64,000 nucleotides of DNA from Thermoplasmata archaeon (GTDB lineage Archaea; Thermoplasmatota; Thermoplasmata; Lutacidiplasmatales; UBA184), in the NCBI GenBank assembly GCA_022750435.1, contig JAKIVS010000001.1, positions 221,703 to 285,702 of the forward strand. Reading direction: 5' to 3'. Below, piece by piece: positions 37,451 to 63,010 of the stretch (position 1 is its first letter; every line of letters starts with the position of its first letter). The position numbers were made by a program, and so were the translations under genes. The notes beneath the pieces are model-generated. The model saw only the letters and a program-made list of their open reading frames with translations, was not told the DNA's origin and did not search any database.

Positions 37451-37555
37451 TGCTCCCGGCGGGAGTTTCCCCGGACGGCGGGAATCGCCGTCCGATTTTG
37501 AACCCGCGTCAGAGGCTCGAGAGGCCTCTATCCTTGACCACTAGACTACGGGAGC
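37451..37555 (-). tRNA. tRNA-Glu(CUC) interrupted by a ~32-nt intron at non-canonical position 59/60 (T-loop)
   Basis: Minus-strand parse: GCTCCCG-TA-GTCT-AGTGGTCAA-GGAT-A-GAGGC-CTCTCGA-GCCTC-TGAC-GCGGG-TTCAAA[ATCGGACGGCGATTCCCGCCGTCCGGGGAAAC]T-CCCGC-CGGGAGC-A. 7-bp acceptor stem, 5-bp anticodon stem, U33, G37, anticodon CTC. T-stem GCGGG/CCCGC and loop TTCAAAT are restored on excision. The intron carries a perfect 9-bp hairpin CGGACGGCG/CGCCGTCCG. Confidence 0.7.
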
Positions 37556-41684: not shown

Positions 41685-41710
41685 TTAATAAGTCACACCC
41701 TAATTATTAA
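41685..41710. promoter_or_regulatory. AT-rich perfect inverted repeat TTAATAA-N12-TTATTAA, putative MntR operator overlapping the TATA region
   Basis: Seen directly in sequence ~24 bp upstream of the repressor start. The only AT-rich block in the region. Confidence 0.5.
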
Positions 41711-41890
41711 TCAACCAAGAACTTTCGCCGTGCGCGGGGGCGAACGACGTACCGCGCGTCCCTCGCCGGCGACCGAATCGTACCGCCCTCCTTCGGCGGT
41801 CGGAACACGACGGTCGACGGGGAGCCCGGCGGGTGGGCGACTCCCTCCGAATCGTCGCGTCGTGGGTCGTGCCGCGGCCGGGCGTTCACC

Positions 41891-44800: not shown

Positions 44801-46357
44801 GGCCGCGAGCGCCTCGCCGGCCTCGGCGAGAGACCCGTCGGCGAGGGTCTGCTGTCCGTTCGCGAGGGCGGCCGCCGTTTCCGGCGTGAGGAAGCCGCGC
44901 TCGCGCGCCAGCTCGACGAGCTTCTCGAGACGTTCGGCGTAGGTTTGGAAATGTTCGAGCGCGGCGCGTCCGAGGGTCCGGATCGCCTCCCGGATCGTCG
45001 TCCGGGCGGCGTCGACCTCGAACTTCTCGAGCCGCTGCTGCGCCTCCCGGAGCGGTTCGTAGTACGACTGGACCGGCACGTCGAGCGCGCTCAACCGGTC
45101 GAGGAGCGAGCGGAGCGAGTCGACCTCCTCCCGGGCGGCGTCGAGGTCCTGGGTGAGCGCCGTGGCGCGCTCCATCGCCTCCTGGCTGGCGGCGAGCGCC
45201 TCCCCGTAGATCTTCAGCCGGAGCGCCTCGCGGGCCCGGTTCATCGCCGCGAACACGTCGGAGGCGTCGCGACCGAGCCAGCGGGCCTCGACCAGCTTCG
45301 GTCGAACCTCGTCAAGCAGCCCGGCGACGATCCCCACGACGGGCTCCTCGGTGATCGCCCGCCCCTTCGCGAGGAGCTGGGGGAGTTCCACGGGACTAGC
45401 GCCCGGCACCTGGTCGACCAAGACGTCGATCTGCGCGACGCCCTCCGTCACGTCGGTGCCGGACCCGCGCAGCGATTCGAGGGTCCCTTTCAGCGTGGCG
45501 AGCGCCCCTTGCACCCGACCGCGGAGTTCCTCGCCGACGTCGGCGCTCGCCCGCTCGATCGCCGGGACCGTCTCGTCCCACTCGAGCGGGGTCGCGCTCT
45601 GATCGACGGCGAGGGCCGTGTCGAGCGTGGCGTGCTGCGAGCCGAGGTCCCGGGCGGCGGCGAGAATCGATTGTCCGGAAGCGCGCACGAGCTCGCGCCG
45701 CTCCACGGCGGCGGGGACCTGGCCCCGGATCTCCGCGTCGAGCTGCGCGAGCGCCTCCGCCACCTTTCCGTCCGACATCGGGGCGATCGCGTGGCGGAAC
45801 CTCGCATCGAGCTCGGCCATCCGCTCCTCGGGGATGCCGGCCCATTTGGCCACCGAACGCGCGCGCTCGCGCAGGGTGAGGGAGAAATCCGTCTGCGATT
45901 GGCGGACGATCCGGAAGAGCGTCGCGATTCGCTCGACGGCCAGGGCGAGCTCGCCTTCGATCGCCGTGGCGCGCAGCTCCTCGATGACCTTGGCGGCGTC
46001 CGCGGGGAGCGGCGCCTTCGCCTTCTGGAGCGCCTCGGCGCGGCCGAGCACCGACGTCCGGCGCTCCTCGAGCGCTGGCGCCACGGAGCGCTGGATGTAG
46101 GATACGAACTCTTTCGCGGTCTGCTCGACCGCCTCCCAATCGGACTTCCGGGTGAGCTCGCGGAGCTTCGCGACCCGCTCGGCGGTCTCGGAGAGGGTGA
46201 CGCCGATCTCCTCGAGAAGTTTCAGTCGGTCTTCGACCTCGGCCGACGCCTGGTCGGCGAGCTGGCGCCGCTTCTTGAGCGACTCCGCCTTCTCCTGGAG
46301 GATCTTGGTCAGGCGGGACGATGGGACGCTCCCCATCCCCCCACCCGAACCGGACAT
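41891..46357 (-). CDS. Giant (1488 aa) acidic alpha-helical repeat / coiled-coil protein of unknown function
   Basis: Ala/Glu/Leu/Arg-rich with a recurring ~35-40-aa module [LV]xxxG[LAV]DTxxxxxxLxxAxxAxxxGxYxxA. Full-length antisense ORF 42062..46363 is a shadow. Confidence 0.65.
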   Translation of the reverse strand: MSGSGGGMGSVPSSRLTKILQEKAESLKKRRQLADQASAEVEDRLKLLEEIGVTLSETAERVAKLRELTRKSDWEAVEQTAKEFVSYIQRSVAPALEERRTSVLGRAEALQKAKAPLPADAAKVIEELRATAIEGELALAVERIATLFRIVRQSQTDFSLTLRERARSVAKWAGIPEERMAELDARFRHAIAPMSDGKVAEALAQLDAEIRGQVPAAVERRELVRASGQSILAAARDLGSQHATLDTALAVDQSATPLEWDETVPAIERASADVGEELRGRVQGALATLKGTLESLRGSGTDVTEGVAQIDVLVDQVPGASPVELPQLLAKGRAITEEPVVGIVAGLLDEVRPKLVEARWLGRDASDVFAAMNRAREALRLKIYGEALAASQEAMERATALTQDLDAAREEVDSLRSLLDRLSALDVPVQSYYEPLREAQQRLEKFEVDAARTTIREAIRTLGRAALEHFQTYAERLEKLVELARERGFLTPETAAALANGQQTLADGSLAEAGEALAAVEVGLRASAGPYVARVVGELEKGFEEIHDDALVAPARRLLADADVSLRVKEDLVASLESLKRAEREFAAVFAAHASSLVEALEEEGRALEAMGGAGDEIQRQIDEVQQIFNMGDFVKASRASQEIRTRAQQQQLIQSEEAVSHAKLALVELGKMGLDTAALRERFDAAQEAARDHRFAEAYQGAKAVEEEALGMRQSAEALVEGLQRAGELWQGLKDDGVAVDAYRERIRETRLAYQALDFAGAKAKLRAIEEALTAERAGTDARRRITTVELLLEDSHRLGLSTDPYRPNLAAASAALSEGRPTEALQLATTAQDALLQLLRPVLEETVRALEQELDVARSAGVDTGTVVEQLAEARRGLATPVPTGVAERVESVRSQLVETRGFLEQAERAVKRAREAFAEAEIVRAAIGPLKGRLAELEDHLAQKRYAKAIELGGPLERELIQSTHTHVAKTLANLQGMLVHVRQEGSPTTVAENLLSRARQALEEGRAIEALTLAAQSEGEIERVELQTTLARAALETMEAKLVEAEKDGVHAASATAQIEKARQAIRRQQFPAVFELALEAADQLATTREQQRRARDALDSADRQVKEALELGADVDEVVRALEKARHHAQAGEYPNATQAAREANDLARWAVERLYAGSFASIRSLAETMTAAGTGRIQAVEEAVAEAEGAIPAREWKRASDALERARTAAYESLDRLLDARRTDLEAIYGAAAAADAPETEARAQAALGIQEARGRRDYPLAVQRMSEEEARARLSRVAVLEAAVHLLKDRLWVGEKLGLDTTPVMELFSEAKSALDAGKYASVEANVQQGNERLAGLVEARLGERRRSVESELVFAREGLNVTLGTLPERLASVEGLVQSGDLVEGARTLLAVESELNTRKALHRELLNIHYLIDSALAKAAERHLDTADARKLLEESIRARVEDYQKALDKARESLKLLQGQTKPPETPAAFWPFRRQPF

Positions 46358-46481
46358 GGCTAGCGCCTACGGAGCGGCCCGGCCGGAGCCGCCGAGGCGG
46401 GGGCGACGGGCGCCCTAAAAAGATGCGGGCTCCTCGATATAAAGCGTGGTCCTCGGGCGCGCGTCGGCCCCGACGTCCGGC

Positions 46482-46868: not shown

Positions 46869-47019
46869 CGCGCGTCCCCTCCGAAGCTCTCGCAAGAAGT
46901 CCGGGGGATAACCGTTGCCCCCGGGCCGGCCGTCGACCGGGGCCGTCCGGCGAGCGAGGGTTTATCGGCGCCGGTCCCCCATCGCAATCCCGCGGGCCGC
47001 GGCGCGGTCCGACGCGTTC

Positions 47020-50000
47020 ATGGAGCGGCTTGCGCCACGGTACGACCCGACCGAGGTGGAGGCGGCCAGCCGCGCGTTCTGGGCGGAACGTTCCCGGCGG
47101 CGCGACGCCGAGGGCGCGGCGGGCCGGGGCGGCCGACCGGTCCGGCAGTTCCTCGGCACCCTCGCCCCCTCCGATTCTCCGGCCACGACGCTCCAGCGGA
47201 CCGTCGCCGCCGATGCCGAAGCGCGCTACCTGCGACTCGCCGGCCGACGGACGGATTGGTCGCTGAGGCTCCGGGTCCCATGGTCCGGCGAGGGACGGGA
47301 CGCCACGGTCGCGCGGCTCTTCCAGGCCGGCGTGAGCGGGCCTTCCACCGACCCGGACGGACTCGCCGAGCGGCGACGGTGGATGCTCGGACGCCTCGCG
47401 GACTCCCGCGTCTTGGTAGCGCGGGAACTCCCGCTCCGGATCTGCCCGAGCTGTCGGACCCCCCGCACCCCGGAAACGATCGTCTACGACGCGCAGCCCG
47501 GGCACGCCTACCTCGTCCGCTTTGCCATCCCGGACGAGGCCGAACGCACGTCGCTCCTCGTCTGGACGGACGAGGTCTGGAAGCTCCTCGGCACCGTGGC
47601 GCTCTTGGTCAACCCCGAAACCCCGTACGTCGTCGCGCGATTCACGCGCCGCGACACCGCGGAACGGGTGATCCTCTCCCGGTCGGCGCTCGACCGCGTG
47701 CAGCGCTGGCTCCCGGGGAGCTCCCTCGAGGTCCTCGAGGAGAAGCTCGGGGCGGACCTCGCGGGGACGACGTACTCCCACCCGCTCACGCTCGAGTACC
47801 CTCCCCTCTCCGACCTCGTCTCGCCCGCGGGCTCCGTCGTCGCCTCGAACGACGTGAGCGACAGCGGCACCGGGATCGTGACGCTCACCCCCTCGCACGG
47901 CGCCGGCGATGCGGCGGTCGCCCGGGCCCACCGGATCGAGGGTCCGTCGGTGGTTGGGACCGACGGCCTCGTGGAGTCCTCCCGGCCGCACAAGTACGCG
48001 GGGCTCGAGTTGGAGAGCGCGGAGGCGTTCATCCTCCGCGACCTGACCGAGGGAGGTTCGATGTTCGCCGAGCTGACCGTGCGGCGCGGCGTACCGTACT
48101 GTGCGGTGTGTGGCTCGGTCCTTCGCTGGGTTCCCGGGCGCGCCTGGTGCCTCGAACCGGGCCGGCTGAGCGCGGAGTCCCTCGGCCAGTTCGCGCGCCT
48201 CCTTCCCGACGACACCGTCCCCCTCACCTCCGAGGTCGTCCCGTGGTCGGTCTCCGAGACGACCCCGAGCGTCGACCCGTCCGACCCGATCCTCTCCGAG
48301 TGCTCCCAATGCGAGCGGCTTTCGACGGCCGCCACCGGGGAGCGGTGCGCCTGTGGCGGAGCGTTCGTCGGCGTGCGACGGCGCCTTCTGCCCGCGTTCT
48401 CCGAGGCCGTCGATGGGTGGGCCTCGGCCCGCGCCCTCGATCCCTCGGACCCGGTACGGCTCTACCTCCCGTACCGTCGGAGGGCCGCGGCGTTGCTCCA
48501 CCACCTCGCCGCCGGCGAGGCGCTCGACGCGCCGCCCGCTGACGTGCGATTGATCGCCCTCCCGACCTTGCCGCCCGGGACCTTCGGCGACGGTCCCGGT
48601 CAGGACGCCCAGAGGGCCGCGCTCCTCCGAACGAGCCGCCCCCCGCGCACGCTGGCCGTCGTCCAGGAACGCGCGGTGCAGGAAGCGCGGCGGCTGAGCA
48701 AGTTCTGGATGTTGGCCGCCCAGGTGCTCGACCGTTCGATCGCCGACGGATTTGAACCGGACCGGGCGCTCGCCGGTCACCTGTCGGAGCTGGCGGAGGA
48801 GGACCGGGCGTTCCTCTCCACCTTCGAGCGGATGCGGACCGACGTCCGTCGACGCTACGAGGCCGGCGACCTCGCCGCCGCCCAGGCGATGCTCGCCCGA
48901 TTCGCGGAGGTCGAACTCCGCGGGGGGTACCTCCCGATGGTCGCGAGCCGCCTCGCCGCGCCCGGGCTTCCGCCGGGGAAGGTCGCCGCCCTCCGGGTCC
49001 TCCACCACGTTCTCCCCGCCTGGGTCGAGCTGTACGCTCCCATCGCGCCGTTCACGATGGAGGCGCTCCACCGGGCGTTCCAGCCCGATGGAGGCTCCGT
49101 CTTCGACGGCGGGATCCTGCCGGCCGTCGACCGGGCCGTGTCGGTCGAAGCGGAGGGGGAGTACGACCGGTGGCGGACCTTCGGCGAAGCCCTGCGGGTC
49201 GGACGCCGGAGATTCGGAATCCCGGCCGCGACCGAGCTGCCCCGCGCGATCCTCCTCGTGAACGATGAGGCGACGGCGACCCGATTGCGTTCGACCGCCG
49301 CGGTCCTGGGGCGGCTCGCCCACGTGACGGAGGTCATCGTCGGCTCCCCGTCCCAACCGTGGGATGGTCAGAGGATCGAGGTCCATCCCGTCCTCGCGGC
49401 CATCCAGAAGACCTACGGGGCCCAATCGGCCCGGGTCGTCCGGATCCTGGAACAGATTCCGTCCCGTCGCGTGCAGGACGGCGTGCGGGCCGGCACGCTC
49501 TCGATCGCCCTCGACGGACGCCAGATGCCAATCCTGCCTGGCATGGTCGAGTTCTCCGAATCGCTGCCGGACGACGTGGTCCCGGTACCCTGGGGGCACG
49601 GCGAGATCCTGATCTCGCTCCCCCCGGACACGGCCCGCCACAAGCGGAAGGCGCCGGCCCTGACGCTGGACGGCTACCGGATCGTTCGCCACATCGAACG
49701 CCGCTTGCACATCGCCGGGGGGGTGACACCCGAGCTCGTCGTCGTGTCGGCCAACGGTCCGCTCGGCGAAGAGATGGCGAAGCACGCCGTCGCCGTCGCC
49801 GCCTACATCGGGATTGGGCAGCTCGCCGTCAACGACGGGACCCTCTCCCCCCCGATGACGGAGACGAGTCTCGGGCGCACGCGTCGCGGAGGTCGGTGGC
49901 GGGTCTACATCCCCGGCGTTCCGGTTCGGCCCCCCACGGCCCGGCCGAGCCGACCGGCCCTCGGACGCCACCGGGTTCCCGTGTTCGCTGAGAGCCGGCC

Positions 50001-51036
50001 CACGTTGGAAACCGTTCCCTTCCTCGAGGGGTCGGTCCGGAACCGCGAGGAGACGGTGCGCTCGATCGTCGAGCAGGTCGACCGAGTCGTCGGACGACCC
50101 GTGGTCGGACCGACCAAGGTCGGAAACGCGTTCGACGCCGGGTTCACCTCGTTCGACTTGCTGTCCAAAGCTCCGTACGACCAGCTCTCGGGCGTGGCGG
50201 GGTTCGGCCCGTTCGTCGCCGGTCTCCTCGTCGAGTCGTTCGGAGGCGAGGTACCGGCGCCACCGCCTCGCCACCGGCCCCACCTCGTGCGTCCGGGCGA
50301 ACACGAACCAGCACCTCCCGAAACGCTGGAGGCGCCGGCCATGGTCGAGCCCCAGCCGGCGCCCCCGGTCCCGGCCGCCGCCCCACCGCCCCTCGCGCCG
50401 CTCGCGGCCCCGATCCTTGCCCCGCCGCCGGCGGCAACCTTACCCACCATGCAAGTCGTTCCCGTGGCGCCGGTCCCGACCCCCGCCGTGCCGGTGCCGC
50501 CACCCCTCGCCCCACCCCCGGTCGTAGCTCCTCCGCCGGCTCCGGAGCCCCCAACTCCGGAACCCCCCGCCGCACCGCCTTCCGGAGTACGACTGAGCCT
50601 CGGGGACCGGGAGGAGCCGGCGTGGAGGAGCTTCCTCGACGCGACGAGCGCCGGACACCGGGGGCTGTGCCTCAGCCGGGAGTTCCCAGAACGTCGGCGC
50701 GCCCTCCTCGGTCCCCGGGACGTCGAGGTCGTCTGGCTCTCGAACGTCGGCAAGGGCTCTGCGGTCCGACCGGGCGACCTGCCGGCGCTGACGACCCTCC
50801 TGACCTCCGCGATGACCGACCGGGGCGTGACCGCCATCTTCGTCGAGGGGGGAGAGTACCTCGTTCGGATCCACGGCGTCGGCCCGCTCGCCGATCTGCT
50901 CCGGCAGCTCGACGCGCTCGCCCGCGAACGCTCCGCCCGGGTCTGGTGGCCGATCAACCCCGCGCTGATGCCCGGCGCGGACGTCGACGTCCTTCGGACG
51001 ACGGTGACCGTCGAGGGCCCCGAATCCCCGACGTGA
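47020..51036 (+). CDS. Catalytically degenerate isoleucyl/valyl-tRNA synthetase paralog fused via a Pro-rich linker to a C-terminal DUF835 domain
   Basis: Class I aaRS N-terminus (PRYDPTEVEAASRAFW). CP1 boundaries ICPSCRTPRTPETIVYDA and PYCAVCGSVLRWVPGRAWCLEPG. Editing-domain motifs LLVWTDEVWKLLG and GTGIVTLTPSHGAGD. IleRS-like DAQRAALLR, KFWML and LPAWVELYAPIAPFTMEAL. HIGH and KMSKS are absent. ~110-aa P/A/V-rich linker. C-terminal GLCLSREFP...VVWLS...AIFVEGGEYLV matches DUF835. Confidence 0.7.
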   Translation: MERLAPRYDPTEVEAASRAFWAERSRRRDAEGAAGRGGRPVRQFLGTLAPSDSPATTLQRTVAADAEARYLRLAGRRTDWSLRLRVPWSGEGRDATVARLFQAGVSGPSTDPDGLAERRRWMLGRLADSRVLVARELPLRICPSCRTPRTPETIVYDAQPGHAYLVRFAIPDEAERTSLLVWTDEVWKLLGTVALLVNPETPYVVARFTRRDTAERVILSRSALDRVQRWLPGSSLEVLEEKLGADLAGTTYSHPLTLEYPPLSDLVSPAGSVVASNDVSDSGTGIVTLTPSHGAGDAAVARAHRIEGPSVVGTDGLVESSRPHKYAGLELESAEAFILRDLTEGGSMFAELTVRRGVPYCAVCGSVLRWVPGRAWCLEPGRLSAESLGQFARLLPDDTVPLTSEVVPWSVSETTPSVDPSDPILSECSQCERLSTAATGERCACGGAFVGVRRRLLPAFSEAVDGWASARALDPSDPVRLYLPYRRRAAALLHHLAAGEALDAPPADVRLIALPTLPPGTFGDGPGQDAQRAALLRTSRPPRTLAVVQERAVQEARRLSKFWMLAAQVLDRSIADGFEPDRALAGHLSELAEEDRAFLSTFERMRTDVRRRYEAGDLAAAQAMLARFAEVELRGGYLPMVASRLAAPGLPPGKVAALRVLHHVLPAWVELYAPIAPFTMEALHRAFQPDGGSVFDGGILPAVDRAVSVEAEGEYDRWRTFGEALRVGRRRFGIPAATELPRAILLVNDEATATRLRSTAAVLGRLAHVTEVIVGSPSQPWDGQRIEVHPVLAAIQKTYGAQSARVVRILEQIPSRRVQDGVRAGTLSIALDGRQMPILPGMVEFSESLPDDVVPVPWGHGEILISLPPDTARHKRKAPALTLDGYRIVRHIERRLHIAGGVTPELVVVSANGPLGEEMAKHAVAVAAYIGIGQLAVNDGTLSPPMTETSLGRTRRGGRWRVYIPGVPVRPPTARPSRPALGRHRVPVFAESRPTLETVPFLEGSVRNREETVRSIVEQVDRVVGRPVVGPTKVGNAFDAGFTSFDLLSKAPYDQLSGVAGFGPFVAGLLVESFGGEVPAPPPRHRPHLVRPGEHEPAPPETLEAPAMVEPQPAPPVPAAAPPPLAPLAAPILAPPPAATLPTMQVVPVAPVPTPAVPVPPPLAPPPVVAPPPAPEPPTPEPPAAPPSGVRLSLGDREEPAWRSFLDATSAGHRGLCLSREFPERRRALLGPRDVEVVWLSNVGKGSAVRPGDLPALTTLLTSAMTDRGVTAIFVEGGEYLVRIHGVGPLADLLRQLDALARERSARVWWPINPALMPGADVDVLRTTVTVEGPESPT

Positions 51037-56057: not shown

Positions 56058-56316
56058 TTTGGCCCCCCTTCTCCCGAGCGTTCCCACGCTAAAAAACCGA
56101 ACCGGAGGTCGTGGAACGGTTCCGAATCCTCCGCCTCGGGAACGCCCCACCCCTCCTCCCGCCGCGCGGTTCGGAAGACGAACGGTACGCGACGGCACCG
56201 CCGGGAATCGCCGCCACGAACGGGGAGGGCGCGAAGGGCCGATGTCCTGGACGGGAGCGAGGGGGCCCCGTTCCGTCCGACGGGGGCCCGTCGGGGCGAG
56301 ACACATCGGGAGGCGG

Positions 56317-56357
56317 CTAAATACCGGGACTCGGGTCCCGCCGCCCCGGGTAAACAA
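56317..56357 (+). promoter_or_regulatory. Promoter of gly-rich paralog 1: TATA-like TAAATA plus conserved ATACCGGGACTCGG and CCGGG-N17-CCCGG palindrome
   Basis: Near-identical element repeated at 59540..59582 upstream of paralog 2. Both genes begin ATGTCG. Confidence 0.55.
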
Positions 56358-59264
56358 ATGTCGAATACGTCGAACGGCCCTGCCACCTTTGCGCTGATCG
56401 CGTTGGCGACCTTCGTCCTGCTCGTCGCGCTCGTGCCCACGATCGTCGCCTCGCCGACGGTCGCCGCCTCGAACGACCCGCGGTCGGCCGTCGGGCCGAC
56501 CCCCGGCACGGTGACCACACCGTGTACCTTCTCGACGTTCCGGACCGACGTACTGGCCGGCGGGACCGTCCAGTTCGGGGCGTCCTGCTCGATGACGATG
56601 ACGTCGCCGATCACCATTCCGTCCACCCTCACGGTGAACATCACCGTCGTGAGCGGAGCGACCGTCACGCTGAGCGGTGGGTTCGCGAACCAGCTGTTCC
56701 TCGTACACGGCGGCAACCTCACGATTATCGGGATCGGACTCGACGATGCCCGGGCCAACGGTGTTGCCGGGGGGACGGGGAGCCTCGGAACGCCGGGGCG
56801 CCTCGGCGTGAACGGGGTTCCGGGCACGGCCGGGACCCCCGGCACCGGCCAGTCCGGCCGCTCCGGCGGTCCCGGGCATGGAGGCGGCGTCGGCGGGCCA
56901 GGGGCCGTGGGCTCGCTTGCCGGCCGCGCGCTCGGTGGAGCGATCGAGATTGTCTCCGGCGTGGTCGTCCTCTCCTTCGACACGTTCTACTCGGACGAGG
57001 CGACCGGCGGCGCCGGCGGCACCGGTGGCGCCGGCGGATCGGGTGGTTACGGCGGAAACGGTGGCGCCGGCGGTGCCGGGGCGAGCCCCACCAACCCCTC
57101 CTCCGCTCTCGGAGGGCGGGGAGGGGCCGGCGGCTTCGCCGCCACGGGTGGAGCCGGTGGCGCCGGGGCGATCGGCCTCCCCGGGGGCTTCGCCGAGGGC
57201 GGTGCGATCAGCAACGCCGGGACGCTGACTCTCGCGAACGACACGTTCGGATCGGACGAGGCCGCCGGCGGCGCGGGCGGGAGCGGCGGGGCCGGAGCCT
57301 CCGGCGGGGTCGGCGGCAACGGCGGATCGGCCGGCGCGGGCGCGACGGGAGGAACCCCTGCGACGACCGCGACCGGGGGAGCCGGAGGCGGTACGGCGGC
57401 GAACACTGCCGGAAACTTCGGCGGCCTCGGAGGAAACGGGGGGAACGGTGGGCAGGGAGGGTACGGCGCCGGAGGTGCCGTCTACAACTTTGGTACCCTC
57501 GTCGCGACAAATACGACCTTCTCGAGTTGCTACGCGGTCGGCGGCGCCGGGGGCGCTGGCGGAACGGGCGGGAACGGAGGGAACGGCGGCGCCGGCGCTG
57601 GCGGGAGCTCCGGAGGACCGGGCGGCGCGGGCGGAACGCCGAGCAGCGCGGGAGGCAACGGTGGCTCGGGCGGCGCCGGCGGGACGGTCGGCTCCGGGAG
57701 CATCGGTGGTTCCCCGGGCCTCGGCGGCCCCGGCGGGATCGGGGGCCCCGGGGGGTTCGCCGAGGGCGCTGCGATCTACAGTAGCGGCTCGTTCCATGCC
57801 TTCCAGGACGTGTTTCAGTACGGCCATGCGGGTGGTGCCACCGGTGGCCTCGGCGGAAACGGTGGGATGGCCGGCACAGGCGGCAGCGGCGGTCCCGGTG
57901 CGACGGGCGGTGCCGGGGGCGCCGGCGGCCAAGGCGCGCCGGGGACCGGGGCTGGGACCGGTGGCAATGGCGGACCCGGTGTCGCCGGCGCCTCCCCCGG
58001 CGGTGGTGGAGGACCCGGATTTGCCGGGCTTTCCGGCGCCGGCGGTTCGGGCGGACTGGGCGGCGTTGCGTCCGGCGGATGCCTCTTCGACGCCTCCAGC
58101 CTCTTCGTCGTCAACAACTCGACCCTCGCCAGCTGCGACGCCGTCGCCGGTCCCGGGGGGAGCGGCGGGTACGGAGGCGCCGGCGCCGCGGCGGCGACCG
58201 GCGGAGCCGGGGCGGCGGGCGCGTACGGCGGCGATGGGGGATCGGGCGGCTCGAACGGCCCGGCGGTGAACGGAGGGGCCGGCGGCGGGGGCGCCGCGGG
58301 ATCCCCGGGTCAGCCCGGCGGTTTCGGCGGGAGTGGCGGTGCGGGCGGGCCAGGCGGCCTCGGCGGAGCGGCCCACGGGGGAGCGGTCTACGCGCCGATG
58401 GCAGCCCAATTCGATAACGATTCGTTCGGCTCGAACGCCGCGTCCGGCGGGGCCGGGGGCCCGGGAGGATCAGGAGGCGCGGGCTCCCAGGGCGGAACCG
58501 GAGGCACCGGTGGCGCCGGCGGGGTCGGCGGGTACGGCGGGTCCGGCGCCTCCGGAGGAACCGGCGCGCACGGCGCCAAGGGTGGCGATGCGGCGGCGGG
58601 CGGAGCCGGGGGACAAGGCGGCTCGGGCGGCCCGGGGGGCCTTGGGGGCGACGGTGGGGCGGCGGACGGCGGGGCGATCGACTCCCGGGCGGCGCTCGTC
58701 CTCGAATATGATACGTTCACCTACAATGCGGCCGTCGCCGGCGCTGGGGCCGCGGGCGGCGCCGGCGGAACGGGAGGCGGCGGTGGCACAGGGCAGTTCG
58801 CCGGCAACGGCGGCCCGGGCGGGTCCGGCGGAGCCGGTTCCACCGTCGGGGCCGGCGCGGCCGGAGGCGCCGGCGGGAACGGAGGCCGAGGCGGCTCCGG
58901 CGTCGCCGGCGGCGCGTCGGGAGCCGGCGGGAGCGGTGGCGATGCCATCGGCGGGGCGGTCTTCAATCTGACCCCCGCGACGATCGTCGGCGTCCTGAAC
59001 TTCGGGGCCAACAGCGCGGTCGGCGGATTCGGCGGCGTGGACAACTGCCTCGCTGGCTCGGCGTGTCCCGGAGCGGGTGGGAGCGCGGGGCTCGGCGGGC
59101 CGGCGGGAACGGGCGGCCTTGGCGGGACGAACGGCGCCGGGCTCCATCGGGCCGCAAACGGAGCGAACGGAGTCGTGGGCGCCGCCGGCACGGCGGGGGC
59201 CTTCGGAGCGAACGGAGCGAGCGGCACGTCGGGAACCGGGATCGTGCCGGACATGGGGGCCTGA
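56358..59264 (+). CDS. Secreted/anchored glycine-rich beta-helix-like repeat surface protein (paralog 1, 968 aa)
   Basis: N-terminal signal/anchor, conserved ~130-aa head domain, then >15 modules GGAI(Y)N.GTL.L..(D/N)TF.SD.A.GG separated by (GGxGGxGG)n tracts (Pmp GGAI/FxxN-like). NxS/T sequon in most modules. Confidence 0.7.
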   Translation: MSNTSNGPATFALIALATFVLLVALVPTIVASPTVAASNDPRSAVGPTPGTVTTPCTFSTFRTDVLAGGTVQFGASCSMTMTSPITIPSTLTVNITVVSGATVTLSGGFANQLFLVHGGNLTIIGIGLDDARANGVAGGTGSLGTPGRLGVNGVPGTAGTPGTGQSGRSGGPGHGGGVGGPGAVGSLAGRALGGAIEIVSGVVVLSFDTFYSDEATGGAGGTGGAGGSGGYGGNGGAGGAGASPTNPSSALGGRGGAGGFAATGGAGGAGAIGLPGGFAEGGAISNAGTLTLANDTFGSDEAAGGAGGSGGAGASGGVGGNGGSAGAGATGGTPATTATGGAGGGTAANTAGNFGGLGGNGGNGGQGGYGAGGAVYNFGTLVATNTTFSSCYAVGGAGGAGGTGGNGGNGGAGAGGSSGGPGGAGGTPSSAGGNGGSGGAGGTVGSGSIGGSPGLGGPGGIGGPGGFAEGAAIYSSGSFHAFQDVFQYGHAGGATGGLGGNGGMAGTGGSGGPGATGGAGGAGGQGAPGTGAGTGGNGGPGVAGASPGGGGGPGFAGLSGAGGSGGLGGVASGGCLFDASSLFVVNNSTLASCDAVAGPGGSGGYGGAGAAAATGGAGAAGAYGGDGGSGGSNGPAVNGGAGGGGAAGSPGQPGGFGGSGGAGGPGGLGGAAHGGAVYAPMAAQFDNDSFGSNAASGGAGGPGGSGGAGSQGGTGGTGGAGGVGGYGGSGASGGTGAHGAKGGDAAAGGAGGQGGSGGPGGLGGDGGAADGGAIDSRAALVLEYDTFTYNAAVAGAGAAGGAGGTGGGGGTGQFAGNGGPGGSGGAGSTVGAGAAGGAGGNGGRGGSGVAGGASGAGGSGGDAIGGAVFNLTPATIVGVLNFGANSAVGGFGGVDNCLAGSACPGAGGSAGLGGPAGTGGLGGTNGAGLHRAANGANGVVGAAGTAGAFGANGASGTSGTGIVPDMGA

Positions 59265-59539
59265 GGTTCCCTTTCGTCCCTCTCGAGGGAACTGCCTCTC
59301 CACGGGCCGGGGATCGACGGCCGGGACCTCTTCCACGATTCCCCGGGGCCCCGGCCCGCTCGAACGCTCAGGAAGGAGGCGGGGCCCCGAGTCGCGGCCT
59401 TCGAGAACAGGAGGGCTCCCGGCCTTCCGGGGCCGCGGAACCAGCCTGTCCCGCCGGGACCCGGAATGTCACGACGCGCCACGTCCACGGCTAGGGCCGT
59501 GGCCCCGGTGGCCGAAAGTTGCGACAATCCTAATTCCGA

Positions 59540-59582
59540 CTATATACCGGGACTCGGTTCCCCGCCTTCCCGGGGATCAAGT
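59540..59582 (+). promoter_or_regulatory. Promoter of gly-rich paralog 2: TATATA plus ATACCGGGACTCGG plus palindrome
   Basis: See paralog 1. ~26 bp from motif end to ATG. Confidence 0.55.
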
Positions 59583-62507
59583 ATGTCGGAACCGTCGAAA
59601 ACCACCGCCCGTCTCGCGCTGATCGGATTTGTCGCCGTTTTCCTCCTCGTCGGCGTTGTTCCGACGATTGCCGGGGCCAGCCCCCTCGCCCCGACGGCGT
59701 CGGTCCATTCCCTGCCCGGCCACACCCCGGGCACCGTGATCTCTCCCTGCGTCTTCACGACGTTCAAGTCGGACGTGCTCGCCGGCGGTACCGTCGAATT
59801 CAACGCGGCCTGCAGCCTCACCATGACCTCGGCCATCACGATCCCTTCGACCCTGACCGTCAACATCACCGCCGTCGGCGCGAGCGTGACGCTGAGCGGC
59901 GCCTACGCGAACCAGTTGTTCATCGTCAGCGGCGGCCACCTCAACATCACGAACCTCTCCCTCGACAGCGCGCGGATCACCGCGAAGGCCGGCCTGCCCG
60001 GAACGGTCGGCACTCCCGGGTCCATCGGGTCGGCCGGCGTCGCGGGCACGGGCGGCACGAGCGGCACGGGCCAGGCCGGCGGCGCGGGCGGCCCCGGGAC
60101 GAACGGCGGCGTTGGCGGAGTCGGCGGAGCCGGGACCGCCGCGTCGACCGCGGAGGGCGGCGCCATCATGATCATGAGTGGTTCGGTCGTGTACCTCGGC
60201 GCGGACTCGTTCTCCTCGGACTCGGCGTACGGCGGCGCTGGCGGCAACGGTGGAAGCGGCGGTGCGGGCGGCTACGCGGGCGGCGGGGGCAACGGCGGCT
60301 CGGGCGCGAGCCCGACCAACCCGTCCTCGGCGGCGGGCGGCGCCGGCGGCACGGGCGGCGCCGGCGGGAACGGCGGCCGTGGCGGCACGGGCGGGAACGG
60401 GGGCACGGGTGGCGACGCCTACGGCGGTGCGATCTACAACGCCGGCACGCTCTTCCTCACGGGCGACACCTTCTCCTCGGACACGGCGAACGCTGGCGTC
60501 GGCGGCAACAGCGGCACCGGCGGGGCCGGCGGCGCCGGTGGCTCGGGCGGGTACGGCGGAAGTGGGGCCGCGGGAGGCACCCCCTCGACGAGCGCCCACG
60601 GCGGGTCCGGCGGCGCCGCGGGCACGAGCGGCGTCGGCGGTCTCGGCGGACGCGGTGGAAACGGCGGTTCCCCGGGCATCTCCGGACTGGCGGCGGGCGG
60701 AGTCCTCTACAACACAGGCTACCTTTCGATCAACGCCTCCACGATCGAGTATTCCTACGCCTACGGCGGAGCGGGCGTCGGCGCGGCGAACGGCGGCGCC
60801 GGCGGCGCGGGCGGTGCCGGCGTGACCACGAACTCGGGCGGTGCCGGCGGCTCGGGCGGAACCCCCTACAGCGCCGGCGGGAACGGCGGAGCGGGCGGCG
60901 CCGCGGGTGCGGCCTCGGCCGGATCCTCCGGTGGCGCCGGCGGTCCGGGCGGCCGCGCCGGGAACGGGAGCGCCGGCGGCGCGGCTCGGGGTGGCGGGAT
61001 CTCGAGTTCCGGTTCGCTCCTCCTCATTCTCGACGACCTCCAGGACGACCACGCGGTCGCCGGCACTGGTGGGGGCGGCGGAACGGGCGGGATGGGCGGT
61101 TCGGCCTCGTCCGGCGGCGCCGGAGGGACCGGCGGCGCCGGCGGTTCGGGCGGGAGCGGATACCAATCCGGTACGGCGGGAACCGGCGGCTCCGGTGGCG
61201 CCGGGGCGAAGGGAGCGAACGGCGGCCTTCCCGGCATTGGCGGTGCGGCGGGCGCCTCGGGGCTCGGGGGCCACGGTGGAAGCGGCGGCGGAGCCCTGGG
61301 CGGCTGCCTCTACACGACCGGAACCGCCGGCTTCCTCTTCGAGAATGGGACGATGTTTGACGCCTGCGTCGCGACCGGCGGTGCCGGTGGGACCGGCGGC
61401 ACGGGTGGCACGGGCGCCTACGGTGCGTCCGGAGGTGCGGGTGGCTCGGGTGGCCGAGGCGGGTACGGCGGCAACGGCGGGTCGAACTCTCCCGCCGAGA
61501 ACGGCGCCCTCGGCGGTGTCGGCGGAGCCGGGACCTCGGCGGAAGCCCCGACCATCGGGAGCACCGGCGGAGCCGGCGGCGCCGGCGGCAGTGGCGGCGT
61601 CGCGGACGGCGGGGCGATGTACACGACCGCCCCGGCCTCGCTCAGCACGGACCTGTTCGAGTACAACCTCGCGAACGGCGGGGTGGGCGGCGTCGGCGGT
61701 ACCGGTGGGTATACTCCGGCGGGCGCCAGCGGCGGCTACGGTGGCTCCGGCGGCGGCGGCGGCGGGGGCGGATCCGGCGTCTCCGGAGGTCACGGGGGCG
61801 GCGGCGTCGCCGGCGGCGCCGGCGAAACCGGGGGCAACGGCTCGGACGGGGCCAACGGCGGTGCGGGCGGCGCCGGTGGCACGGGGGGCTCCGGGTTCGG
61901 CGGCGGGCTCTACGTCTACGGCACGACCGCCGTCGGCCTCAGCTCCGCCCGATTCCTGTACAACTCGGCGGTCGGCGGCTTTGGGGCCGCCGGCGGCGCG
62001 GGCGGCGGGGCGGGTGCCGGCGGCACTGCCGAGTACGGCGCGAACGGCGGCACCGGCGGCACCGGTGGCGGCGGCACGGCGGTCGGCTCCGGGGGCGCCG
62101 GCGGAGCGGGCGGCGACGGCGGAGGCGGCGGAAACGGCGGCACGGGCGGTGCTTCGGGCACGGCCGGCAACGGCGGCGCCGGGAACGGCGGGGCGATCTA
62201 CAACATGACGACGGCGACGGTCACCATTAGCGGGATCACCTACGCCGCCAACAGCGTCGTCGGCGGCTACGGTGGCGTCGACAACTGCGGCGGGGCGACG
62301 ACGGCGTGCCCGGGAACCGCGGGGGGCGCCGGGACGGCGGGCGCGGCGGGCAGCGGCGGCTTGGGCGGACTCAACGGCGCGGGCCTCCTCCGAGGCGGGA
62401 CGGGCGCGACCGGAGTGGCCGGATTCGTCGGTTTCGTCGGACTCATCGGCGCGAACGGCCTCAGCGGAAACTCGGGGACGGCCACCAACCAGAACCAGGG
62501 CTACTGA
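59583..62507 (+). CDS. Secreted/anchored glycine-rich beta-helix-like repeat surface protein (paralog 2, 974 aa)
   Basis: Same architecture and head domain as paralog 1 (…GTVISPCVFTTFKSDVLAGGTVEFNAACSLTMTSAITIPSTLTVNIT…). Shared promoter motif upstream. Confidence 0.7.
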   Translation: MSEPSKTTARLALIGFVAVFLLVGVVPTIAGASPLAPTASVHSLPGHTPGTVISPCVFTTFKSDVLAGGTVEFNAACSLTMTSAITIPSTLTVNITAVGASVTLSGAYANQLFIVSGGHLNITNLSLDSARITAKAGLPGTVGTPGSIGSAGVAGTGGTSGTGQAGGAGGPGTNGGVGGVGGAGTAASTAEGGAIMIMSGSVVYLGADSFSSDSAYGGAGGNGGSGGAGGYAGGGGNGGSGASPTNPSSAAGGAGGTGGAGGNGGRGGTGGNGGTGGDAYGGAIYNAGTLFLTGDTFSSDTANAGVGGNSGTGGAGGAGGSGGYGGSGAAGGTPSTSAHGGSGGAAGTSGVGGLGGRGGNGGSPGISGLAAGGVLYNTGYLSINASTIEYSYAYGGAGVGAANGGAGGAGGAGVTTNSGGAGGSGGTPYSAGGNGGAGGAAGAASAGSSGGAGGPGGRAGNGSAGGAARGGGISSSGSLLLILDDLQDDHAVAGTGGGGGTGGMGGSASSGGAGGTGGAGGSGGSGYQSGTAGTGGSGGAGAKGANGGLPGIGGAAGASGLGGHGGSGGGALGGCLYTTGTAGFLFENGTMFDACVATGGAGGTGGTGGTGAYGASGGAGGSGGRGGYGGNGGSNSPAENGALGGVGGAGTSAEAPTIGSTGGAGGAGGSGGVADGGAMYTTAPASLSTDLFEYNLANGGVGGVGGTGGYTPAGASGGYGGSGGGGGGGGSGVSGGHGGGGVAGGAGETGGNGSDGANGGAGGAGGTGGSGFGGGLYVYGTTAVGLSSARFLYNSAVGGFGAAGGAGGGAGAGGTAEYGANGGTGGTGGGGTAVGSGGAGGAGGDGGGGGNGGTGGASGTAGNGGAGNGGAIYNMTTATVTISGITYAANSVVGGYGGVDNCGGATTACPGTAGGAGTAGAAGSGGLGGLNGAGLLRGGTGATGVAGFVGFVGLIGANGLSGNSGTATNQNQGY

Positions 62508-63010
62508 GCCCACCGCGAGGGCGGGGCTCCTTCGGAGCCTCGTCCCCGCGGCAACCCCGCCGTTCCGGGTGGGACTCCGCCGGTGCGGCGACCGGGACCG
62601 ATTCGGCGGGTCGATGGGTGCCGACGCGCTCGGGGTTCGCCGCCCGGCGGCCGGGGGCGTGAGGATATCTCCGCGCCGGACTCCCGTCGGGCGAGGATTC
62701 GCAGGAATCATGACCGGGTCACTCCGAACACGGCGCTCGCCGGCTGCCAAGAAACGCAACGCCCGCACGCGCCAACGGCGGATCGCCGCCCGCCGCCGCC
62801 AGGTCCCCCTCGGGGGGAACCGGGGCGGTCATCAAACGAAGGCGTAACGCCTCGAGGACTCCGGGTCGTGGGGCTCCCCGGACGCGCAACTCCAGACCAC
62901 GACCGCCGAACGGTGGGGGCCTCTCGGCCCGCCGAACTCCGGACGGGGCCCGCTCCGAGCCGCGGCACGCACGACCCACCGATCGTCTAGCCGGCGGAAG
63001 TGGGGGTTCG

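Follow-up and report, generated by a model that had tools for sequence, protein, structure and literature searches.

A tandem pair of glycine-rich genes from a Thermoplasmata archaeon encodes predicted beta-helical, probably surface-located proteins behind a conserved promoter element

Two neighbouring genes of a Thermoplasmata archaeon, p1 and p2, are old tandem paralogues whose products are predicted to fold as beta-helix rods in which each rung carries a length-conserved excursion of glycine triplets. We consider it probable that both proteins are exported, build a surface coat or adhesin from a beta-helix and polyglycine-II (PGII) helices, and are each expressed as a monocistronic unit from a promoter combining a TATA box with the element ACCGGGACTCGG. 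The host is probably a soil archaeon related to the Lutacidiplasmatales, and its lineage is known from acid soils (PMC9287336).

The gene pair and the architecture of its products

Coordinates refer to the window, the whole stretch of 64,000 nucleotides that was analysed. The genes and the hairpin that follows them are:

56358..59264, + strand: p1 coding sequence (968 aa plus stop, Met-Ser start)
59583..62507, + strand: p2 coding sequence (974 aa plus stop, Met-Ser start)
62513..62551, + strand: hairpin directly 3' of the p2 stop codon, a candidate transcript 3' end or stabiliser

An earlier note had described two paralogous tandem genes of about 970 aa with a shared head domain and identical starts, and this description holds. 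ATGTCG forms the first two codons of both genes, and both products consist of 37% Gly and 15–16% Ala, with D/E/K/R making up only ∼4% of the residues in each. The proteins are colinear over their full length, with 61% identity over the first 304 aa and 55.2% over 967 aligned residues, and p2 is nearer than p1 to the one copy carried by the syntenic locus L002. No conserved adjacent genes that would point to a function were found in the neighbourhood. The 71-nt fold at 62505–62575, which includes the hairpin, has a predicted energy of −47 kcal/mol (z −3.83, 0 of 200 shuffles as good), and its role as a terminator is putative because it lacks a T-run.

On the minus strand, long ORFs (913 and 1063 aa) overlap the region, as would be expected if p1 and p2 were open frames kept long by the composition of GC-rich DNA or simply the antisense of genes on the minus strand. 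This origin, to which we assign practically no weight, is refuted by four results. GC3 peaks in the + frame (0.82–0.87 versus 0.69–0.73 in the overlapping minus-strand ORFs), divergence among four genes follows the pattern of the + frame (0.27–0.33 at codon position 1, 0.26–0.33 at position 2 and 0.50–0.60 at position 3), the head domain is confidently modelled by AlphaFold2, and the + frame protein has thousands of homologues. Hence p1 and p2 are real + strand genes, and their glycine tracts are, as had been supposed, not an antisense by-product.

Both proteins have the same order of parts:

56376..56447, + strand: p1 signal peptide or signal anchor (aa 7–30; hydrophobic, modelled as a helix by AlphaFold2)
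56496..56762, + strand: p1 head domain (aa 47–135; Cys56 and Cys77; predicted first beta-helix rungs; pLDDT 85–98)
56760..56927, + strand: p1 Gxx-triplet stretch (aa 135–190; glycine every third residue)
56928..59042, + strand: p1 eight repeat units (aa 191–895; each block modelled as strands; blocks start at aa 191, 278, 370, 467, 570, 671, 768 and 863)
59043..59261, + strand: p1 C-terminal Cys-loop motif (GGVDNCLAGSACPG) and Gxx-triplet tail (aa 896–968; pLDDT <50)
59601..59669, + strand: p2 signal peptide or signal anchor (aa 7–29; hydrophobic, modelled as a helix by AlphaFold2)
59721..59984, + strand: p2 head domain (aa 47–134; pLDDT 84–98)
59991..60149, + strand: p2 Gxx-triplet stretch (aa 137–189)
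60150..62282, + strand: p2 eight repeat units (aa 190–900; blocks start at aa 190, 279, 370, 467, 571, 673, 771 and 866)
62283..62504, + strand: p2 C-terminal Cys-loop motif and Gxx tail (aa 901–974)

The Cys-containing head is the conserved core of the family profile and is 70.6% identical between p1 and p2 (tblastn). Each of the eight units (88–103 aa), which stand in the same register in both proteins, comprises a strand block of ∼25 aa with the consensus GGAIYNxGTLxLxxxTFxxNxAxGG followed by a (GGx)n tract of 65–80 aa. The Gxx stretch of p1 contains in-phase triplet runs of 10 and 8, and its glycines at 3-residue spacing are invariant among 11 sequences. The C-terminal Cys-loop motif and Gxx tail are kept in p1, p2, L002p and L004p. 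The N-glycosylation sequons that had been noted are not enriched: there are nine sequons in p1 and eight in p2, against 5.9 and 7.6 in shuffled sequences (the observed number was reached by a fraction of 0.13 and 0.49 of shuffles, respectively), a frequency expected by chance, and most of them fall in strand blocks rather than glycine tracts.

Predicted fold and the glycine tracts

AlphaFold2 returned a beta-helix for both proteins (pTM 0.69 and mean pLDDT 71.7 for p1; pTM 0.71 and mean pLDDT 69.8 for p2) with all p1 blocks as strands, in agreement with the beta-solenoid that had been anticipated. In both models pLDDT exceeds 90 in the head, the Gxx stretch, all strand blocks and the tract flanks. 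No DSSP helix or strand is assigned to the p1 tracts despite values of 90–98, nor to the p1 Gxx stretch, which is modelled at 90–98. The glycine-rich sequence may be partly flexible, since pLDDT falls below 50 in the centres of tracts 3–8 and in the last ∼70 residues. Sequence similarity to any solved chain was not found, and the best Foldseek match in the PDB, the polyproline-II (PPII) bundle antifreeze protein of a springtail (7jjv), is weak (E 5e-3) and not significant.

The dimensions of the proteins are strongly conserved. Of 18 complete homologues, 17 are 956–979 aa long, and the blocks of 16 archaeal homologues, which share just 43–62% identity with p1/p2, sit at matching positions with shifts of no more than about 10 residues. 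A four-protein alignment has 14 gap columns among 978 and 269 invariant glycine columns, and the mid-tract loops are likewise conserved. Since the glycine columns are kept although ∼60% of their codons differ, the tracts are better regarded as structured than as slippery low complexity. The glycine autocorrelation peaks at lags of 3, 6, 9 and 12 (1.68, 1.56, 1.46 and 1.38), against ∼0.9 at other lags.

We propose that the ∼930 residues of the mature protein form one right-handed parallel beta-helix, in which the head would supply the first rungs and each of the eight blocks one further rung. Between rungs the chain would leave the helix as a (GGx)n tract of fixed length (65–80 residues), and the Gxx stretch would precede the first rung as the tracts precede later ones. 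Most likely the tracts adopt polyglycine-II or PPII helices that pack on each other and on the solenoid, and such packing could yield a compact, nearly uncharged particle resistant to acid and proteases. GGX repeats are a known signature of glycine-rich PPII bundles (PMC13243192, PMC9436101), and PPII helices interleaved with beta-solenoid layers occur in a solved adhesin, gp38 of phage S16 (10.1101/2023.11.25.568672).

A different reading, in which the rungs fold and the tracts stay disordered as flexible, brush-like linkers or entropic bristles, would account for the low confidence in the tract centres and C-terminal tail; disorder is frequent in glycine-rich sequence, and the match to a PPII bundle falls short of significance. 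We nevertheless regard it as unlikely. Disordered linkers normally tolerate insertions and deletions, whereas these tracts have near residue-exact lengths across 16 divergent proteins, invariant glycines encoded by differing codons and a strict period of three, and the Gxx stretch and p1 tract 1 (pLDDT 76–98) are modelled with confidence.

Among known structures, the gp38 adhesin tip of the S16 long tail fibre (PDB 6F45) is the only solved case of such interleaving that we found (10.1101/2023.11.25.568672). However, it is a domain of ∼150 residues with 10 PPII helices and about four solenoid layers, whereas p1 and p2 would have about 12 rungs and >500 glycine-tract residues, and their mid-tract loops are conserved rather than hypervariable. 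Glycine-rich PPII bundles were compared in the snow-flea and springtail antifreeze proteins (3BOG, 7jjv). Right-handed parallel beta-helix proteins of the pectate-lyase-like type include Rhombotarget A of Acinetobacter (PDB 9cdu), the PL alginate lyase 6kfn, PfbA and the SRRP adhesins; eight consecutive rungs split by 65–80-residue glycine-triplet excursions are absent from these structures, and no profile relationship to pectate-lyase-like surface or secreted proteins was detected in Pfam or NCBIfam.

The resemblance to chlamydial Pmp proteins that had been noted is limited to a loose motif and the fold. GGA[ILV] starts six of eight blocks in p1 and three of eight in p2 (which has a further GGAL at aa 569, just ahead of block 5), with FxxN or FxxD some 15 residues further on, and both groups are multi-copy paralogous families with a beta-helical, passenger-like rod. 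However, neither Chlam_PMP (Pfam) nor POMP_repeat (NCBIfam) matched at E < 10, even with the glycine tracts excised; p1 and p2 have no autotransporter barrel and no outer membrane, and Pmp repeats lack long inter-rung glycine tracts. The tracts also recall mycobacterial PE_PGRS proteins in their period-3 GGA/GGN/GGS/GGT triplets, and PGRS tracts are modelled by AlphaFold as ordered, non-alpha, non-beta PGII in a predicted PGII sandwich (PMC9436101, PMC13243192). Unlike PE_PGRS proteins, p1 and p2 lack a PE domain, a GRPLI linker and an ESX-5 context, their tract lengths are fixed across distant orthologues where PGRS regions are indel-polymorphic, and each rung holds one inserted tract, with no free-standing sail.

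Promoter and upstream element

The sites upstream of the two genes are:

56316..56323, + strand: p1 TATA box (GCTAAATA), with TAAATA at 56318–56323, 35 nt before the ATG
56321..56334, + strand: p1 copy of the promoter-proximal element ATACCGGGACTCGG, directly following the TATA box
56345..56350, + strand: p1 CCCGGG box, around the predicted transcription start; second arm of the palindrome
59539..59546, + strand: p2 TATA box (ACTATATA), with TATATA at 59541–59546
59544..59557, + strand: p2 copy of ATACCGGGACTCGG, directly following the TATA box
59569..59574, + strand: p2 CCCGGG box, around the predicted transcription start

A conserved upstream element with a TAAATA or TATATA box had been reported for both genes, and it recurs in orthologous loci. 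Only five canonical TATA hexamer sites occur in the 64 kb window, the p1 box among them, and exact matches to ATACCGGGACTCGG number two in the whole window, one upstream of each gene. Conservation among p1, p2 and L002 covers 24 bases, and the sequences upstream of the TATA box show no resemblance to one another; between p2 and L002, where the TATA box ACTATATA is identical, all 24 bases (from CTATATA to TTCCC) are the same. The element ATACCGGGACTCGG is kept in L002 and persists in the relaxed form ATACCGGRA in L003, L004, L010, L013, L017 and L028, and 12 of the 14 occurrences of WATACCDGRA in the 279 kb of sequence searched lie directly upstream of family genes. Judged from these sequence comparisons, the combination of TATA box and ACCGGGACTCGG is conserved and family-specific. 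Both genes do carry it, but it was not simply duplicated with them: it is an ancestral feature of the archaeal clade, found also at single-copy loci.

In archaea the distance from TATA box to transcription start is usually about 23–27 nt, from which the p1 start was placed. We propose that each gene is transcribed monocistronically from a strong promoter with a canonical TATA box. The element ACCGGGACTCGG, placed between this box and the start, could act as a specialised core promoter or as the operator at which a repressor prevents recruitment of RNA polymerase.

The CCGGG and CCCGG sequences, which can pair and lie near the start codon, could instead belong to a 5' hairpin or riboregulator in the RNA, an explanation that we find improbable. 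Shuffled sequence folds as well as the inverted repeat does (z +0.32 and +0.27), the mRNA 5' ends fold worse than their shuffled counterparts (z +1.2 and +1.9), more distant orthologues retain ATACCGGRA and lose the pairing, and Rfam gave no match in the window. Furthermore, the left arm abuts the TATA box and, by archaeal promoter geometry, should therefore lie upstream of the transcription start. The palindrome is thus no significant hairpin, and its proposed spacing of 17 nt applies to p2, whereas p1 has 16 nt (or CCGGG-N17-CCGGG). A CCCGGG box is found in eight of eight close relatives; CCGGG/CCCGG, common in this GC-rich DNA, is modestly enriched, with 12 of 25 family promoters against 3–8 of 25 control windows.

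Relatives, location and possible function

No model in Pfam, NCBIfam or PHROG matched p1 or p2, and neither viral contigs nor PHROGs yielded relatives. The head profile recovers 4,774 representative proteins, including many from bacteria, so the proposal of a new archaeal family stands in that it has no Pfam or NCBIfam name, but not in that it is archaeal: the family is large and also bacterial. We therefore regard p1 and p2 as a real, unusual fold variant but no archaeal invention. The module of head plus repeats occurs in thousands of proteins, many from Acidimicrobiales, Solirubrobacteraceae and Planctomycetes, and unnamed MAG proteins (Acidimicrobiales, Solirubrobacteraceae, Gemmataceae, Pirellulales), annotated only through Ig-like or dockerin domains, are true homologues that share the Cys-containing head, the Gxx stretch and GGAIYN/(GGx)n units. 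These relatives vary in unit number and fuse the module to additional C- or N-terminal domains (SLH, Ig-like including He_PIG and Big_9, Calx-beta, dockerin, VanY and phage lysozyme), whereas the archaeal clade has the bare module at a fixed length of about 970 aa.

The expected export signal, or else an anchor, is present as a hydrophobic N-terminal segment in both proteins, with a Kyte-Doolittle 19-residue maximum of 2.73 at aa 13–31 of p1, its sole such segment, and 2.70 at the N terminus of p2. This segment would direct export by the Sec pathway and may be cleaved after a small-residue site or retained as a membrane anchor; neither a C-terminal anchor nor a known archaeal sorting signal is present. 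From the single hydrophobic segment, the ∼4% charge and the modules of the bacterial relatives, we infer a location on the cell surface, where the proteins most likely serve as an acid-stable structural coat or an adhesin-type binding module.

An abundant, self-assembling S-layer or main envelope lattice, rather than a ligand-binding adhesin, would suit the strong canonical TATA promoters, rare in the window, the monocistronic genes, the signal peptide and low charge, and the SLH domains on one bacterial relative. It is an unlikely assignment, since no S-layer family model in Pfam or NCBIfam matches, there is no C-terminal anchor, and two to several diverged paralogues per locus are unusual for a lattice protein. 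Secreted carbohydrate-active enzymes, such as polysaccharide lyases or hydrolases, are found among many pectate-lyase-fold proteins, but here the matches (8–16% identity) reflect nothing beyond the fold, no CAZy-type Pfam or NCBIfam model matches, there are very few acidic or basic residues that could serve in catalysis, and conservation falls on glycines, hydrophobic rung residues and the Asn/Asp of turns; an enzymatic role thus seems improbable. Ice-binding proteins classically use beta-solenoid or PPII-bundle folds, and the model joins a beta-helix with flat glycine-rich surfaces. An ice-binding or antifreeze-type function is nevertheless very improbable, because the springtail antifreeze protein, though the best PDB match, is a weak, composition-driven one and the blocks show no regular Thr/Ala ice-binding ladder.

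Genes and repeat architecture

The glycine-rich proteins p1 and p2 (37% Gly and 15-16% Ala) are encoded by neighbouring genes that both open with ATGTCG, as the earlier note had stated, the Met-Ser start being read from the DNA. These tandem paralogues share 61% identity in their first 304 residues and 55.2% across 967 aligned residues.

56318-56323, + strand: TATA box TAAATA upstream of p1
56358-59264, + strand: p1, 968 aa
59043-59261, + strand: C-terminal motif GGVDNCxAGSACPG of p1, then Gxx-triplet tail
59541-59546, + strand: TATA box TATATA upstream of p2
59583-62507, + strand: p2, 974 aa
62283-62504, + strand: C-terminal motif GGVDNCxAGSACPG of p2, then Gxx-triplet tail
Residues ∼7-30 of p1 and p2: hydrophobic N-terminal segment
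After this segment and before the head, p1 and p2: short Pro/Ser/Thr linker
Residues 47-135 of p1 and p2: Cys-containing head
Residues 135-190 of p1 and p2: Gxx stretch, every third residue glycine
After the Gxx stretch, p1 and p2: eight units of 88-103 aa each

The suggestion that the glycine tracts might be the antisense of a genuine minus-strand gene is ruled out by GC3, which is 0.82-0.87 in the + frames versus 0.69-0.73 in the overlapping minus-strand ORFs, and by the divergence at codon positions 1, 2 and 3 (0.27-0.33, 0.26-0.33 and 0.50-0.60, respectively) among p1, p2 and two orthologues from the related loci L002 and L004. Across these four proteins 269 glycine columns are invariant, and ∼60% of glycine-glycine columns differ in codon, which argues that the glycines are kept by selection on the protein rather than by homogenization of a DNA repeat. 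That the two ORFs are a non-coding artefact has practically no probability.

Each unit comprises a ∼25-residue block, GGAIYNxGTLxLxxxTFxxNxAxGG, followed by a (GGx)n tract of 65-80 residues, itself split by a short non-glycine loop that is conserved, such as ASPTNPSSA, GGTPSTS or SNSPAENG. Glycine autocorrelation is 1.68, 1.56, 1.46 and 1.38 at lags 3, 6, 9 and 12 and ∼0.9 at other lags. Runs of at least five in-phase triplets number 26 in p1 and 24 in p2, the longest extending to 16 and 21 triplets, respectively, with X in the GGXGG tracts mainly A, S, T or N. Both proteins therefore display, repeatedly and over at least two turns, the GGX/GXX triplet periodicity of glycine-rich polyproline-II (PPII) bundles.

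The lengths of these elements are conserved. Only 14 of 978 columns in the four-protein alignment contain gaps, and the blocks start at nearly the same positions (∼190, 279, 370, 467, 570, 673, 770 and 865) in 16 full-length archaeal homologues that are 43-62% identical to p1 and p2. The length is 956-979 aa in 17 of 18 complete homologous ORFs. Such fixed lengths across homologues argue for an ordered structure. The last ∼70 residues of all members (including the homologues P0002, P0003 and P0006) are Gxx triplets, and the C-terminal tails of bacterial relatives look collagen-like, for example GPNGKPGQAGATGQPGDPGQAG. This Gxx tail may be an oligomerization segment.

Export and predicted fold

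The sole hydrophobic segment of each protein is N-terminal (19-residue Kyte-Doolittle maxima of 2.73 for p1 and 2.70 for p2) and is followed by small-residue sites, VAS-P and AGA-SP, that have similar counterparts in homologues. There is no C-terminal anchor in p1 or p2. This segment would be the export signal sought by the earlier note, either cleaved or kept as an anchor. Only ∼4% of the residues in each protein are D, E, K or R (K+R 11-13, D+E 27-28), and this low charge would suit an acid-exposed protein. The N-glycosylation sequons to which the earlier note drew attention are not enriched, with 9 versus 5.9 in shuffled p1 and 8 versus 7.6 in shuffled p2 (the observed count was reached in a fraction of 0.13 and 0.49 of shuffles, respectively). 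Two sequon positions are kept in all four aligned proteins.

AlphaFold2 models built with a 60-sequence alignment gave a mean pLDDT of 71.7 and pTM of 0.69 for p1, and 69.8 and 0.71 for p2. In both, a helix is modelled at residues 7-30, and pLDDT is 85-98 across the head, Gxx stretch, tract flanks and each of the eight strand blocks; values fall below 50 in the last ∼70 residues and in the centres of tracts 3-8. The predicted fold is a right-handed parallel beta-helix of the pectin-lyase type, as expected from the beta-solenoid proposal. DSSP assigns neither helix nor strand to the glycine tracts, including the parts modelled with pLDDT 90-98. A Foldseek search of the PDB gave no match at E<1e-3; the best matches were to the springtail PPII-bundle antifreeze protein 7jjv (E 5e-3). 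The BFVD viral models gave two matches at E<=1e-3, both with low TM-scores.

A PPII helix has backbone phi/psi angles of about -75/+145. Glycine-rich PPII bundles are characterized by GGX repeats (PMC13243192; for PGRS, PMC9436101), and in the solved structure of the phage S16 adhesin gp38 PPII helices are interleaved with beta-solenoid layers (10.1101/2023.11.25.568672). From the confidently modelled tracts that lack DSSP helix or strand, the 7jjv match and this literature, we infer that the glycine tracts of p1 and p2 probably form polyglycine-II (PGII) helices. Beta-helix rungs carrying disordered glycine loops, to which the low-confidence tract centres might be ascribed, are an unlikely alternative given the conserved tract lengths. 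A collagen-like triple helix was also considered. The Pro-rich GXY triplets of PF01391 are lacking, with no Pfam match; the N-terminal Gxx stretch is modelled as packed on the monomer with pLDDT 90-98, and a Foldseek match to a phage 'collagen' protein had a TM-score of 0.06-0.10.

Relation to known families and distribution

Scans of p1 and p2 against Pfam, NCBIfam and PHROG gave no match, and neither did the sequence families Beta_helix, NosD and PbH1 in Pfam and NCBIfam; a single relative, P0098, has a sub-threshold match to NosD (E 0.005). With the tracts removed, the head plus blocks had no relevant Pfam or NCBIfam match at E<=10. A phmmer search of PDB sequences gave no match at E<=1. 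The resemblance to chlamydial Pmp proteins noted earlier extends at most to a loose GGA(I/L/V)/FxxN motif and the rung fold, and not to the Pmp profiles or barrel. GGA[ILV] occurs six times in p1 and four times in p2, and FxxN occurs four times within the blocks of p1 (residues 583, 690, 787 and 882) and twice within those of p2, the remaining blocks having FxxD or neither; in p1 it is also found outside the blocks at residues 814 and 949. Chlam_PMP (PF02415) and POMP_repeat (TIGR01376) did not match full-length p1 or p2 at E<=1, or the proteins without glycine tracts at E<=10. In place of the Pmp autotransporter beta-barrel the C terminus is a Gxx tail with no Pfam match, and no strands are predicted past residue ∼890 in either model.

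The tracts do contain the long GGA-GGX triplets of PE_PGRS proteins, as had been claimed. However, the PE domain and linker are absent (no Pfam match), the N terminus being instead a hydrophobic signal followed by the beta-helix head, and PGRS domains are indel-polymorphic (PMC9436101), unlike the tracts of p1, p2 and their homologues, which are fixed in length. The two proteins therefore combine two known ideas, a Pmp-like beta-helix rung and a PGRS-like GGX tract, an arrangement of which we found no description.

A family profile comprising the head, the Gxx stretch and the first rung, made from the window proteins and homologues, matched 4,774 representative proteins at E<=1e-3, 1,138 at E<=1e-10 and 107 at E<=1e-30. 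In genomes and metagenomes 38 related loci were found. The closest are in Thermoplasmata MAGs, including AcS13-54 and SubAcS15-67; 35 further loci are from soil and peat metagenomes, and one fragment is annotated as Candidatus Lutacidiplasmatales. Genomes of the Lutacidiplasmatales come from acidic Scottish soils and have ∼69% GC (PMC9287336); the window has ∼71% GC, and its genes for DUF2070 and DUF835 proteins mark it as archaeal. Numerous members of the family come from bacteria (Acidimicrobiales, Solirubrobacteraceae, Gemmataceae and Pirellulales), so that the module is no archaeal invention, contrary to the proposal of a new archaeal family. In the bacterial relatives the module is joined to Ig-like (He_PIG, Big_9), SLH, Calx-beta, dockerin, VanY or phage-lysozyme domains, and since their Pfam matches fall outside the head and repeat module, the module is unannotated yet clearly extracellular. 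Within this large extracellular family, which has no name, p1 and p2 represent the archaeal branch of fixed length. A search of viral contigs gave no relative.

A crude filter found no neighbouring gene conserved across the 38 loci. Synteny with the window is seen at L002, where a single family copy, 61.7% identical to p2 and 57.6% to p1, lies between an upstream glyoxalase-like gene and a downstream MRIY... gene. In a neighbour-joining tree p1 lies outside the pair formed by p2 and the L002 protein, which indicates either an old duplication or faster evolution of p1. Tandem or divergent pairs at three other loci, L028 (heads at 3980 and 7185), L034 (784 and 4001) and L017 (3361 on the - strand, 3995 on the + strand), indicate that the family is multi-copy. 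In L001 (667-3605) a frameshift divides the homologue into two ORFs that overlap, and L018 encodes from 3872 onward a truncated form of 280 aa (P0073) whose N terminus recurs in the cut-off contig L022.

The upstream element and proposed role

Both TATA boxes run straight into ATACCGGGACTCGG, a 14-mer with exactly two perfect matches in the window, bearing out the conserved upstream element described earlier. Among the p1, p2 and L002 promoters the similarity starts sharply at the TATA box, spans ∼24 bases (CTAWATACCGGGACTCGGKTCCC) and resumes at CCGGG and ATGTCG, with nothing alignable upstream of the TATA box. A relaxed form, TTTATACCGGAA ... CCGGG, precedes the genes in L003, L004, L010, L013, L017 and L028, while ATACCAGGACTC is found upstream of those in L015 and L034 and TACCAGGACTC in L011. 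In 279 kb of sequence, both strands counted, WATACCDGRA occurs 14 times, and in 12 cases a family gene follows directly. The window has few canonical TATA hexamers, with two of five sites at p1 and p2.

The reported inverted repeat is present, but its spacer to CCCGG is 17 nt only in p2 and 16 nt in p1. As a hairpin the palindrome folds no better than shuffles (z +0.3), and Rfam found no family in the whole window. The second arm is modestly enriched (12 of 25 family promoters versus 3-8 of 25 control windows), and given this modest enrichment the inverted repeat alone was not used as evidence. By the usual archaeal spacing between TATA box and start, transcription would begin at the CCGGG box and the leader would be 10-12 nt long. 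The 5' ends of the mRNAs fold worse than shuffles (z +1.2 and +1.9). Archaeal repressors can bind between the TATA box and the start, blocking recruitment of the polymerase. The element is therefore best read as a family-specific core promoter or operator between TATA box and start, and action at the RNA level is very unlikely. A second family clade (L001, ∼660-700 on the + strand; L017, ∼3500 on the - strand) has its own promoter, GGGCTTGATATACTGyAwCACGGATGGsCCG, and its genes, with a GTG start ∼21-23 nt downstream of the TATA box, are probably leaderless.

Taken together, we think it probable that p1 and p2 are exported beta-helix surface proteins with PGII excursions, which would provide the cell surface with an acid-stable coat or binding module and would be expressed from a strong, family-specific promoter; high expression is hinted at by the strong canonical TATA box. 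More specifically, they might be S-layer lattice proteins, but p1 and p2 have no Pfam or NCBIfam S-layer match and, unlike archaeal S-layer proteins, no C-terminal transmembrane segment or PGF-CTERM, and we judge this assignment improbable. The pectin-lyase-like fold might bring to mind a glycan-cleaving enzyme and the 7jjv match ice binding; the former has little to recommend it and the latter still less. Improbable to the same degree as the S-layer lattice is a more far-reaching proposal, in which an undescribed composite fold has each rung extrude a fixed-length PGII hairpin, the hairpins together making an unbroken sheet of glycine along the solenoid. In acid-soil Thermoplasmata the ∼970-residue module would then be the main protein of the envelope, acid-proof and highly expressed, and a functional substitute for an S-layer, with a dedicated TATA-ACCGGGACTCGG...CCGGG promoter/operator switching between the diverged paralogues.

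If the tracts are ordered PGII, the family would be a large natural group of PPII bundles with thousands of members in archaea and bacteria and a rare case of PGII elements placed one per beta-helix rung at fixed lengths, useful for designing and understanding PPII-based architectures and for reading the still unsolved PGRS domains. The proteins are candidates for a major surface protein in uncultured, Lutacidiplasmatales-like Thermoplasmata of acid soil and peat, and belong to a widespread extracellular module without a Pfam or NCBIfam model. The promoter element is a compact example, open to testing, of how a high-GC archaeon may control transcription of one specific family.

Several other features of the window were observed. 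Directly after the p2 stop codon lies a very stable hairpin whose short loop is CUU (62513-62551, + strand); the surrounding 71 nt (62505-62575) fold at -47 kcal/mol (z -3.8), which none of 200 shuffles equalled, and the region after the p1 stop folds no better than shuffles. A 1488-aa all-alpha repeat protein rich in Ala, Glu, Arg and Leu, with no Pfam match, is encoded at 41891-46357 (- strand), preceded by a TATA at 46443 that is among the few canonical hexamers. The 1373-aa product of 46915-51036 (+ strand) unusually pairs a tRNA-ligase anticodon-binding domain (Anticodon_1) with a C-terminal DUF835. Two adjacent GH15 genes of the glucoamylase/glucodextranase type occupy 1458-3851 and 3922-5787 (- strand), and the only tRNA gene, tRNA-Glu(CTC) at 37481-37555 (- strand), lies in the lowest-GC stretch (0.635, 36-38 kb). 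Within the 71% GC DNA, a short AT-rich intergenic stretch at 41685-41715, taggatcgaatcTTAATAagtcacaccctaattattaatcaacc, has TTAATA on both strands and may hold divergent promoters.
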